This document shows, piece after piece, positions 20,004 to 23,694 of a stretch of 64,000 nucleotides of DNA. The translations under genes and the position numbers were made by a program. How positions within the stretch are numbered: position 1 is the stretch's first letter; every line of letters starts with the position of its first letter. The notes beneath the pieces are model-generated. The model saw nothing but the letters and a program-made list of their open reading frames with translations, had not been told where the DNA came from and searched no databases. This DNA is from Kondoa subrosea (taxonomy: Eukaryota), in assembly GCA_039545335.1 (NCBI GenBank), contig BCIN01000003.1, positions 1,178,001 through 1,242,000 on the forward strand, given 5' to 3'.

Positions 20004-20554
20004 CTGGTCGAGGGCGTAGGATTGTTGTTAGATGTCTTGCAGGAGTGGCAGTCAAAGTAGCAGCAAGCGAACAGTCGTTGATGAGACAAACAGCTAAGGA
20101 GTTTCTCATGGAATGCTCGAACAACAAAACATAGCTCGATTTCCAACGTGACAGCAATATGTATACAGGTGACGTAGACATGCCCACGCAATGATGACAA
20201 CATATATGTGCCCAAGCTTCTGTATGGATGGAAGGAACGGAGAGCTTGGATCAGAAGTGATCTCTGACCGAATGCTCTTGTGTGCAATTCATCAGACGGA
20301 CAAGGATTGTCACTATCGTCCCAGATATGTGAGACTCGAAAGCAGGCAGAAGAGAGTAAGAAAAGGCTGCGAGCCGAATATTGCCCATTCGCAAAGGAAG
20401 TTCACGCACTCCCAGAAGCATAGATTGGCTGCTTTACAAGATTGCGCCAGACTACGCTGTAGAGAGCATAAAAGAACAAGACAGATCACAAGTCACGGTG
20501 CAGAGCAAGACTTCTCGAAATTTCGCGCAAGCATGTCTCTTCGAAACAGCGAAA

Positions 20555-22395
20555 ATGAGCGCAAACTGGCACTGTAAGCACAGAAACCCTCTTGCAGTAA
20601 ACTTACTAAATGGAAGGTCTTGCTTTACAGGGAAGACCAAAGTGAGCTCTCGAGCGAATGATGCGTTTCTCGCACTTGCTAATTCAGCTTCTCTAGTCTA
20701 CTAAGCCTTGGGCAGACAGCTTCTTTAACACAGAGCTGACCAAATTGGCTACTGATCATGTCAAGATTGTATCCGTAGCACCTACAGAAGGTGACTGCGA
20801 GATTGGAGTAAGTCAGATGAATGTGCTGTATGTAAGGAGCAGGCGCTAAATGTGACCAATAGATGCGCAAGAGCAAAGTCATTACAATCTATGATCTTCG
20901 CGTGACAAGCAATTGGGAAACTCTCGACGGATCTGTTAAAGGCACATTGATCGCTGTGGAAGTGTCGCATGATGTTGAAGATTCGAAGGATCAATACGTC
21001 TTTGAAACGACTGTTGATGGATCTGGATCTGAGGCAGACAAAGCAAAAGAAGCAGCACGAACAGCTTTAGCCGATCTTTGCAGACCAGTCTTTTCTCAAT
21101 TCCCCAAGGTGAACATCCATATGTCCCTTTTGATGTTTGTCTGAAGATTCTTTCAGGAAATGATCAACATTCATGGCAAAGATTTACTGAAATCTGACGA
21201 CTCAGCGACTTCTTCTGGTCGCACTTCTCCTCTTCCACCTTCTTCTTCCGCTACTCAAGCTCTTTCCTCTACTTCTACCGCCAGCAGATCCTCTGCGCCA
21301 GCAAAACCAGCTACTACAAACACTACTACTGTGCGAGTGGAAGCTTCTTTCATGATCTCCGCTCAAGGCTTGTTTGAAACCTTGACCGATCCCTCAAAAG
21401 TTCAGATGTGGACTCGCAATCAGGTGAGAGGTGCTCCTATTGTAGCAAACTCGTTTGCTCATGATTCAGTGTCTTCTCACAGGCCAAAGTCAGTAGCATC
21501 CGCTGAAGTTGAAACCAAATTTACTGACTCACGATACAGATTGCACCTGAGGTTGGGTCTGAAGTCTCTCTATTCGGCGGCAACATCACTGGCAAAGTCA
21601 CTGCTGTCGATGCGCCGAAATCACTGACCATGACTTGGCGTGCTCCGACATGGCCAGAAGGTTCGGTAATGGGCGTAACTTGCTTCGTCTGAAGCTGAAC
21701 ATGTACTGTTTCGAACAGGACATTACGGATCTCTTGTTTTCGATTTGCAGCAGAACGCTTCGGATACTACTTTGACTATGCGTACGTTGAGTTGATCTAA
21801 AGCAGTCTTCGTATTGTTGATATCAACAACCCAACGTACAGGTCTCGATGGTGTTCCTCTTGGTAAAGAAGAAGAAGCAGAGAAGAACCTAGGTGAGTCA
21901 CTCGTCACCATTCACCATTCGAGTGTATGTTGATCGCGTTACTCACAGACATCTACTACATCCGAAGTTTGAGTAAGCCTTTTTCTCATTTTCTATGTTG
22001 AATGACGCTCACGAATCATCTATAGAACAAATAGGGTTGGTTCCAACTTCAAATACTTCCGCTACTCCTTCTTCCCCGATTCCTTCTATACCTCATGCCC
22101 GAAAACGACATTTGTCATCAAAAGAGAAAGGTCATACCTTCTTACAGACGCTTGGTGCACGAGCAGCAGCAGCTCTGATACCTATGCTCTCTTTTGGCGT
22201 GATTGGCGTTATGATTTACGCCATTTACCGAGGACCTACTTTCCAAGATCCGCAACAATGATACTTCAACCTGCCTTTGTGTTTTATACTGTTTCTTATT
22301 GTCACATAAAACGAAGAAGTGAGCTTGTTGAGTCTCAGAACAGAGATCTAATTCAATATGTCTTGTCTTTTTACAGGTTGGGTACATTGCTATAA
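20555..22395 (+). CDS. AHA1: Hsp90 co-chaperone Aha1
   Basis: MSANWHWKTK, EGDCEIGMRKSKVITIYDL (N-domain). LFETLTDP...WTR, FGGNITG, WRAPTWPEGHY (AHSA1 domain). Spliced end DIYYIRSLKQIGLGTLL*. Confidence 0.9.
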
Positions 22396-22530
22396 GTCGT
22401 CAACTGCAATCGATAATTAGAGAAGGGTAGAGGCATAGAAATCAGCAGTACATTGATCATGAAATGCACAAGTTGGAAAAACTATTTACAAACAGAACGC
22501 AAAACGAATGACTCATGCTTAGAAGACTAT

Positions 22531-23590
22531 TCAAGTAGATTTCCTTGCTTTCTTCTTCCCTCCCAATCCAGCTTGAATCCGATCAAACTCTTCATCTGTC
22601 GGCATAGGCATTGATTGCCTCTTAGCTTTCTTGTTTTTCTTGCCCTCTTTGACTTCTTCTTCCGATGCATGCTCTTCGGATGAAGCAGATGTTTTCCTCT
22701 TCTTGCTATTGTTTTCATTTGAAGCATATTTGGCTTCTAAGTTCGCCAACGTATTAGCCATTCTTGCTGCTCCTCTTTGCTGAATCAAAGCTTTCAATGC
22801 CTCTTCTCCATCTTCCTCCTTACTTTTCCCTTTGCCCTTCTTCGAAGTTCCACTTCCGTATAGCTTATCATGCACTCCTAGCTCTTTAGCTAAAGCTTCA
22901 GCTTCTCCTGCTTCTTTACTTGCTGCCTCCTTCCTCTTTGTCTTGCCTTTAGTATCTTTAAGCATCTTAGTCCAATTAGAAGTAGCTTTCAACTCTCCCG
23001 AAGCGATTGCGGAATTGATCAAAGAGGTGAATCGATCTTCTGCTGTGAGTGCATTCAGGGACATGACGTTCTCCAAAATGAAAGTAATGGATCCTTTTGA
23101 ATCTTTGTACGCTTTATATAAGTCTGATTTCTCTTCTTCAGAGTCTACTTTCCTAGTCAGTGTCTTTTCATCACGTAATTAGAGATAGTTGAGCATTACC
23201 CTGATAGGCAGCAAAGAAATCTTTAATGGATGTAGCGTTGACTTCGCCTTGCCAGAGTTCTCTGAAATAATCATCCCATTCTTCTCTTGTCTTCTTCCCA
23301 TCATTCAACCCACCATTCTCATCAGTCCTGCCGGTAGAATCGTAGCGTTCCTTTCGTTTCTCATCCGACAACACTGAATAAGCATAACCAATCTGTAGGA
23401 ATTTAGTCTTGCCTTGCTCTTGCTCTTCTGCAGTAGCCTTGGCAGACAATTTATCAGGATGATGCAAGAGTGCGAGTCTGCGGTAAGCTTTCTTAATTTC
23501 ATCTGAAGTTGCTTTCTCTGGTAAATTCAAGGCGGAGTAGAGATCATAGTCTTCAGTGTTGAAGATGGCTTCTGCTGGATCTGCTTCCAT
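22531..23590 (-). CDS. DnaJ-domain protein, DNAJC9-like (2 exons)
   Basis: J-domain EIKKAYRRLALLHHPDK, then WDDYFRELW...IKDFFAAYQ, KEAGEAEALAKELG, LKALIQQRG...LEAKYA and PTDEEFDRIQ as in the DNAJC9 family. Confidence 0.85.
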
Positions 23591-23647
23591 TGTGCGGCTA
23601 CTTGCGTTGAGAGAAGTTAGAGTGCAAGAAGAAGAGTCGCATAAACA

Positions 23648-23653
23648 ACGCGT
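23648..23653. promoter_or_regulatory. ACGCGT (MluI/MCB-like box) upstream of the DNAJC9-like gene
   Basis: Exact ACGCGT 58 nt upstream of the ATG in a 104-nt intergenic gap; a single hexamer can occur by chance. Confidence 0.3.
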
Positions 23654-23694
23654 AAATCAAAACAACGTAGGTGCCAGTGGCAATGTGCAATGCA

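Follow-up and report, generated by a model that had tools for sequence, protein, structure and literature searches.

To our knowledge, all characterised Aha1 proteins are soluble, and Aha1, the strongest accelerator of the Hsp90 cycle that we know of, is viewed as acting in soluble form only. The ways in which Hsp90 is brought to membrane clients are only now becoming clear, from work on anchored co-chaperones such as FKBP8. In the available part of its description, FKBP8 (FKBP38) is a tail-anchored Hsp90 co-chaperone of the endoplasmic reticulum (ER) and mitochondria that is needed for membrane-protein folding (PMC13470449). The AHA1 gene of Kondoa subrosea suggests another arrangement. The stretch of DNA analysed here (the window) comprises 64,000 nucleotides of assembly GCA_039545335.1 (contig BCIN01000003.1, positions 1,178,001 to 1,242,000 of the forward strand), and the last intron of its AHA1 gene, if retained, would give the protein a predicted C-terminal membrane anchor. 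Comparison with related fungi points to intron retention as a conserved switch by which Aha1 is made in either a soluble or a tail-anchored form, with a probability of about 70%, where expression of the two forms in K. subrosea itself is assumed by analogy with the relatives.

The last intron and its read-through tail

The spliced AHA1 product has 315 amino acids and ends in YYIRSLKQIGLGTLL, that is, in KQIGLGTLL, with the stop codon at 22393-22395. The original prediction, read from the letters of this locus, had placed a GTTGGT donor, a CTAAT branch and an acceptor around an intron at 22036-22376 whose removal produces this canonical end, and all of these elements lie where it had put them. 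The donor reads agg/GTTGGT at 22036 (slashes mark splice sites) and the branch, at 22348-22352, stands 25 nt upstream of the acceptor TTTTTACAG/G, which ends at 22376. The intron is likewise as exceptional in length as had been supposed, with 341 nt, where the ten others in this gene have 48-60 nt (57, 55, 55, 48, 59, 51, 58, 60, 56 and 53 nt for introns 1-10). Left unspliced, it remains open for 75 codons, up to a TGA at 22259-22261, and encodes in the predicted succession a Ser/Pro linker, a basic patch, a hydrophobic helix and the end RGPTFQDPQQ. After KQIG the tail runs LVPTSNTSATPSSPIPSIPHA-RKRHLSSKEK-GHTFLQTLGAR-AAAALIPMLSFGVIGVMIYAIY-RGPTFQDPQQ, so that in the resulting long form of 384 amino acids the final four residues of the short form are exchanged for 73 others.

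The best 19-residue Kyte-Doolittle window of the long form has a hydropathy of 2.18 and covers residues 355-373 of the 384, with 11 residues following it; the maximum elsewhere is 0.75 in residues 1-311 and 0.41 in the first 40 residues. By hydropathy the long form has a single C-terminal hydrophobic helix, no N-terminal signal and no other transmembrane (TM) segment, which is the make-up of a tail-anchored protein. The helix call is based on Kyte-Doolittle windows and AlphaFold2 rather than on a dedicated TM predictor. AlphaFold2, given the 77-residue tail and a seven-row alignment, returned a single helix over tail residues 37-68 and an unstructured linker, at a low-to-moderate confidence for the helix (mean pLDDT, the predicted local distance difference test score, 60). 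A Pfam scan of the tail found no family.

Open frames in introns can arise by chance, and this intron might owe its length to something else, for example an RNA gene within it or the insertion of an element. Its sixfold length relative to its neighbours and the presence of GTTGG at both of its ends speak for such an origin. However, open frames of this kind are rare: among 20000 dinucleotide-preserving shuffles of the intron, 355 kept at least 75 codons open in this frame, and 50 of the 20000 also held a 19-mer with a hydropathy of at least 1.8. The codon usage of the tail open reading frame (ORF) is exon-like. Under a codon model for which 20 long ORFs from other parts of the window were the training set, its score is +0.223 bits per codon in frame, with -0.36 and -0.05 in the other two frames, compared with +0.26 and +0.29 for exons 4 and 5 and -0.33 to -0.49 for introns 1-10; the part of the intron after the stop gives -0.30, -0.40 and +0.08 in its three frames. 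The GC contents are 0.464 in exons, 0.460 in the tail-ORF part, 0.431 in the other introns and 0.339 in the post-stop part. An Rfam scan of 20400-22700 found no family at E <= 1, so that an intronic RNA gene has no support. Since homologous TM ORFs occupy the same site in many lineages, as described below, the comparative data already refute a chance origin in practice, and it is hardly credible.

Two C-terminal ends in related fungi

Family and homologue searches were run from single exons and from relatives rather than from the full spliced protein, and the tailed relatives were reached only by searching with the Aha1 body. The nearest named relatives all belong to the Pucciniomycotina, at ~45-53% identity. 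Of 40 Aha1 relatives returned, 13 carry a TM tail after the ..IG, 17 have the canonical [IM]GLG..L end, and 10 are broken or other models. The 13 tailed proteins come from rusts (Puccinia graminis, P. triticina, P. striiformis and Austropuccinia), from two Microbotryum species, Meredithblackwellia, Microbotryomycetes sp. JL221 and two further contigs, and from three Rhizoctonia solani models. Directly after the ..IG these tails have the same layout of Ser/Pro linker, basic patch, hydrophobic helix and short end, the basic patch being represented by RRRR, KRK or RARARA.

Both forms are on record side by side, where pairs were assigned by a single locus or by one 90%-identity cluster. P. graminis PGT21_025496 has KAA1069467.1 (322 aa) and KAA1069468.1 (399 aa), with the first 318 residues identical; P. 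triticina PTTG_12633 has OAV95844.1 (393 aa) and the 'variant' OAV95845.1 (322 aa), with 318 identical; and Microbotryum lychnidis-dioicae MVLG_06768 has KDE02706.1 (403 aa) and the 'variant' KDE02707.1 (328 aa), with 323 identical. A further rust pair consists of P0012 (322 aa, 24 contigs) and P0043 (390 aa, 15 contigs), and a Cystobasidium-like pair of P0007 (334 aa) and P0080 (410 aa), identical over 329 residues. The 12 members of the P0013 cluster comprise four long forms, seven short forms and one broken model. For Rhodotorula toruloides, the models of 326 and 388 aa come from different assemblies. Expression of only one isoform, which the original prediction had named as an outcome that would refute it, is therefore not what the relatives show, as both forms occur among them as annotated variants and as transcript-like contigs. 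Which of the two ends a public AHA1 gene model has varies with the strain, and some models have been joined wrongly. One P. striiformis model (P0067, 376 aa) joins ..KQIG straight to RQRRRSSSPP, skipping most of the linker and keeping the helix; it would be either a third isoform, spliced to a site within the retained intron, or the product of faulty annotation.

The anatomy of the window intron recurs in genomic DNA. A metagenome scan with an alignment of 15 Aha1 proteins as query returned 15 loci (L001-L015), of which six, from five lineages, are genomic loci built like the window gene: L002/L003 (69% identical to R. toruloides), L007, L011 (from a 214-kb contig), L013 and L015. In these six loci the exon ends in ..ATCGG/GT in phase 2 and is followed by a read-through TM ORF of 66-95 codons that ends in ..[YW]xGP[STN]G.. 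and a stop; after the stop come 79-170 non-coding bases, a good acceptor and a mini-exon encoding LG[ATS][MIL]L and a stop. The homologous mini-exon lies 3' of the TM ORF in L002, L003, L005, L007, L011, L013 and L015, and both coding ends are conserved at the orthologous site in seven lineages. A broken frame or a lost TM segment in relatives, another result that would have spoken against the prediction, is not what was found either: this intron contains the TM ORF in five uncultured genomic lineages as well as in rusts, Microbotryomycetes and a Cystobasidium-like lineage. Among the remaining loci, the spliced form is represented by L004 and L009 and the long form by L001, which stops short of the mini-exon; L006, L008, L010 and L014 are uninformative, as they end before or inside the region. 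An apparent stop inside the tail of L012 was dropped as false, the contig entering sequencing-adapter sequence at L012:1823-1868.

The mode of production is indicated by L005, a 1219-nt rust contig that is 100% identical to P0013 across the aligned part. It is continuous through positions at which the window gene has introns and keeps the whole 541-nt last intron together with the mini-exon; a broken P. sorghi model also indicates an intron near one of its uninterrupted sites. The lack of upstream introns and the presence of the last intron and mini-exon in one molecule argue for selective intron retention, not intronic polyadenylation. Of the two routes originally proposed for the anchored form, retention is supported, and polyadenylation did not make at least this molecule, in which the mini-exon is still present.

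The donor site keeps the frame open

The last intron begins with GT[TC] in 7/7 lineages, always in the same phase, and so has a pyrimidine at +3. Eight of the ten other introns of the window gene have a purine there, GTAAGT and GTGAGT being their commonest donor forms. Because the intron is in phase 2 (GG/G), a GTAAGT or GTGAGT donor would place TAA or TGA right after the Gly codon, and it is the pyrimidine at +3 that leaves the frame open. The same pyrimidine probably weakens splicing as well. Two Ustilaginomycotina models, P0030 (Moesziomyces) and P0031 (Ustilago nuda), have ..KSMG as their last residues, which is just where the last intron lies; such an end fits a retained intron with an immediate in-frame stop, and from these protein models it appears that these two smuts may be without the long form.

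Conservation and divergence of the tail

Homology of the window tail to those of the relatives is detected by a profile built from 11 relatives' tails and from the residues after ..IG only, all Aha1 residues being excluded. This profile ranks the window ORF at 21977-22258 first of 1313 six-frame ORFs, with E 5.7e-4 against 0.25 for the next ORF; genomic loci outside the profile-building set score E 1e-12 to 5e-23. In BLASTP comparisons the window helix and GPT motif match the P. graminis long form at 12/22 identical residues (E 4e-4), and they match P0080 (E 7e-4), the two sequences sharing Q[TS]LGAR ahead of the helix and Y[RN]GPT beyond it. The window copy is, on these similarities, seen as a recognisable but divergent member of the tail family.

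A seven-lineage alignment has few invariant columns: the I and G of ..IG, one helix Ser and the post-helix G-P (G69, P70). The latter two belong to a motif, [YW]-x-G-P-[ST/N]-G, that is kept across classes, the window version being Y-R-G-P-T-F; it was seen in the tails of P0008, P0011, P0015, P0017-P0021, P0039, P0072 and P0079 and in L002-L015. Its conservation, to judge from these tails, exceeds what a simple anchor would need. In codon comparisons the proportion of non-synonymous differences is lower than that of synonymous differences (pN < pS) in 20/21 pairs, although synonymous divergence (dS) is saturated in many pairs. The ratio of non-synonymous to synonymous divergence (dN/dS) is 0.29 for L013-L015 and 0.41 for L002-L011; the expectation of a value below 1 thus holds for these two pairs. 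Nucleotide Z-scores were 1.0-5.2 in the coding part and -3.3 to 0.8 in the post-stop part, the lineages being too diverged for these values to be of use.

The hydrophobic C-terminus of the retained form might instead act as a degradation signal, in which case retention would lower Aha1 dosage rather than anchor the protein. Intron retention in fungi commonly regulates dosage, and the linker of the tail evolves fast, as this explanation would allow. However, a degradation signal needs none of the features that have been kept, namely basic residues only on the N-terminal side, a helix of ~20 residues with a Kyte-Doolittle hydropathy of 1.64-2.33, a short end of low charge and the [YW]xGP[ST]G motif, a set that characterises tail-anchored proteins. 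A consensus donor, with its immediate stop and near-normal protein, would also be a simpler path to a harmless retained transcript. A role in dosage is quite unlikely on these grounds, and anchoring remains the preferred reading.

Several observations weigh against a functional switch, particularly in K. subrosea. The window tail is the most divergent member of the family. Two residues found in most relatives are missing from it, a Trp immediately ahead of the helix and a Gly following GP[ST]. Its profile match amounts to only 16.2 bits, and searches with it as a single query gave 0 matches at E <= 0.001 with phmmer among 1.84 billion representatives and none at E <= 0.1 with a word-based method among longer proteins. 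In pairs that include the window dN is ~0.9-1.1 and dS is saturated, so that purifying selection on the window copy is not demonstrated from DNA. The nearest relative (P0003, 79% identical) is on record in the short form only, in a cluster of 1. Most short contigs, moreover, were taken as RNA-derived from the absence of introns and not from library records. Finally, two read-through models are without a TM helix, Phakopsora P0014 (348 aa) and Melampsora americana P0068 (363 aa). A second Phakopsora pachyrhizi model (P0079, 391 aa) has the helix intact, which makes the TM-less P0014 a matter of annotation. The tail of P0068 resembles those of the rusts at first (RRRSPSPPDFPTPVV) and loses this similarity further on, a pattern suggestive of a frameshift, an additional intron or a wrongly joined model.

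The divergence of the window tail and the short-form record of P0003 would both be explained if the intronic ORF of K. subrosea were a relic, the long isoform being no longer made or used and spliced Aha1 alone being of importance. Against this, the frame is still open over its 75 codons, in the face of the shuffling statistics given above, its codon usage is still that of an exon, its helix is the strongest hydrophobic segment of the protein, and the frame-preserving, non-consensus donor is still present. Loss of function in this organism is accordingly judged unlikely, and a working switch is favoured for it as for its relatives.

Proposed mechanism and target membrane

In the proposed mechanism the last AHA1 intron would be a conserved coding intron that is removed only sometimes. 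Its splicing would yield the soluble canonical Aha1 of 315 amino acids, and its retention would let translation continue from the split Gly codon into the linker, the basic patch, the helix and the 11-residue end. With the helix 11 residues from the C-terminus and no N-terminal signal, insertion could only be post-translational, as in tail-anchored proteins. From the position of the helix and the positive charges on its N-terminal side we infer that the N-terminal domain is cytosolic. The Aha1 domains would stay in the cytosol on a flexible, disordered tether of ~40 residues, within reach of Hsp90 near the membrane, and the anchored form would speed up the Hsp90 ATPase locally.

In the accessible part of a study of tail-anchored proteins, those of the yeast ER have TM domains with a grand average of hydropathy (GRAVY) > 1.75, and a hydrophobic helix with low tail charge is said to lead to the ER, moderate charge to mitochondria and high charge to peroxisomes (PMC5450235). 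Across the family the tails have a best 19-mer hydropathy of 1.64-2.33, a post-helix net charge of 0 to +2 and positive charges on the N-terminal side of the helix; the window anchor combines its helix hydropathy of 2.18 with an end of net charge 0 and, again, N-terminal positive charges. Helix hydropathy and tail charge, set against these targeting rules as far as they are available, favour the ER, which has about an even chance of being the target membrane. The mitochondrial outer membrane comes second and is a less probable destination, and peroxisomes are unlikely.

Taken together, these elements can be stated as a single hypothesis. An ancient splice switch, going back at least to the ancestor of rusts, Microbotryomycetes and Cystobasidium-like yeasts and perhaps to that of all Basidiomycota, would allot part of the Hsp90 ATPase activator to the cytosol and part to the ER or mitochondrial outer membrane, on its cytosolic face; the non-consensus phase-2 donor would both weaken splicing and keep the frame open, and the luminal [YW]xGP[ST]G would serve in sorting or in the binding of a partner. 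With all of its parts, this hypothesis is put forward tentatively, at somewhat less than even odds. The wider date depends on Rhizoctonia solani, a member of the Agaricomycotina, in which the models P0024-P0026 and P0074-P0078 continue after ..SIG with a Ser-rich linker, a Trp, a helix and an end of 3-5 residues. These tails do not match the Pucciniomycotina profile significantly (E 0.2-1.5), so that an origin common to all Basidiomycota is not shown; their layout may reflect common origin or convergence.

The gene model and its surroundings

The features of the locus are listed in Table 1. The spliced model can be aligned with P0003, a protein of 311 amino acids from a 1037-nt contig that carries PF09229 and PF08327, at 245/311 identical residues (78.8%) and without gaps at every exon junction, and the last 15 residues of the two proteins are the same. 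The gene is very intron-dense, with 11 introns per 948-nt coding sequence, and has three micro-exons, of 11 nt (20631-20641), 6 nt (21483-21488) and 10 nt (22026-22035), all of which are required for colinearity with the transcript-like P0003. Exon 4 alone is recognised as Aha1_N (PF09229; E 2.8e-13, 50.7 bits against a cut-off of 23.6), and exons 5 and 7, each searched singly, gave no Pfam match. The C-terminal AHSA1/START-like domain (PF08327) is assigned through colinearity with P0003. The protein begins with MSANWHWKTK, which contains what we take to be the NWHW motif of the Aha1 N-terminus. By these features the spliced product is regarded as an ordinary Aha1/AHSA1 member, and stimulation of the Hsp90 ATPase is predicted for it.

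Downstream, at 22531-23656 on the minus strand, lies a convergent gene for a DNAJC9-like J-protein (DnaJ, E 3.8e-20; HTH_DNAJC9, E 8.5e-19). Its stop is only ~135 nt from that of AHA1, which places two chaperone-cofactor genes tail to tail, and the 3' untranslated regions of the two genes probably overlap.

Table 1. Features of the AHA1 locus in the K. subrosea window (positions count from the first letter of the window)
Feature	Position	Strand	Evidence
AHA1 gene, 12 coding exons	20555-22395	+	model built from direct reading of the region
AHA1 exons 1-6	20555-20573, 20631-20641, 20697-20807, 20863-21108, 21157-21423, 21483-21488	+	
AHA1 exons 7-12	21540-21660, 21719-21781, 21842-21892, 21949-21972, 22026-22035, 22377-22395	+	
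Micro-exon 11, 10 nt (..K QIG), phase 2 end (GG/G)	22026-22035	+	gene model and P0003 colinearity
Last intron, 341 nt, facultatively retained (proposed), donor GTTGGT with pyrimidine at +3	22036-22376	+	direct reading, gene model
Ser/Pro-rich linker LVPTSNTSATPSSPIPSIPHA, long isoform	22037-22099	+	translation; AlphaFold2, no secondary structure
Basic patch RKRHLSSKEK, predicted cytosolic side of helix	22100-22129	+	translation
Predicted transmembrane helix AAAALIPMLSFGVIGVMIYAIY	22163-22228	+	19-residue Kyte-Doolittle hydropathy 2.18; AlphaFold2 helix; BLASTP to relatives
Short C-terminal (predicted luminal) end RGPTFQDPQQ and TGA, with family-wide G-P-[ST/N] motif	22229-22261	+	
Non-coding intron remainder, branch CTAAT 22348-22352, acceptor TTTTTACAG	22262-22376	+	GC 0.339, codon log-odds
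Last mini-exon (G)LGTLL and TAA, canonical Aha1 end	22377-22395	+	gene model and P0003 alignment

Significance and comparison with known systems

A full-text literature search, which does not reach most subscription journals and supplements, found no paper on a transmembrane or tail-anchored Aha1. Both forms are publicly deposited as 'variant' or 'hypothetical' proteins and have apparently gone undescribed in print. If the proposed switch is real, a whole fungal lineage would localise the Hsp90 ATPase activator itself, through regulated intron retention, and these fungi would have a dedicated membrane-bound Hsp90 accelerator for membrane-protein clients. It would also be one of few deeply conserved fungal splice choices that change the protein. 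The idea can be tested directly in R. toruloides, a tractable yeast in which both forms are already annotated, and it bears on the annotation of AHA1, whose public models have now one end and now the other.

The spliced form resembles canonical Aha1/AHSA1, the Hsp90 ATPase activator represented by yeast Aha1 and human AHSA1, in having Aha1_N and the AHSA1 C-terminal domain, NWHW and the ...IGLGTLL end. It differs in that the same gene, in the window and across Pucciniomycotina, also encodes a form with a predicted C-terminal membrane anchor. Alternative splicing that changes the destination of a protein has precedents among fungi, since in Ustilago it reportedly produces peroxisomal isoforms of glycolytic enzymes. 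SKI7/HBS1 of fungi, as far as the available part of the report describes it, is similar in that an old, conserved splice choice at the 3' end of one gene gives two proteins (PMC3597508). These two cases differ from AHA1 in that they add a peroxisomal signal or split two functions, and they involve neither a chaperone cofactor nor a tail anchor. In the ER and peroxisomal isoforms of FALDH (ALDH3A2), according to the accessible text, one gene likewise provides two C-termini, and targeting depends on the hydrophobicity of the TM domain and the charge of the tail (PMC5450235). Both FALDH forms are tail-anchored, whereas the choice at AHA1 would be between a soluble and an anchored protein. The closest functional precedent is FKBP8, in its available description an Hsp90 co-chaperone held at the membrane by a C-terminal tail anchor, as is proposed for the long form of Aha1. 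However, FKBP8 is a co-chaperone of the tetratricopeptide repeat (TPR) and peptidyl-prolyl isomerase (PPIase) type and is constitutively anchored, whereas in these fungi it would be the ATPase activator itself that is brought to the membrane, and in one of its two splice forms only.

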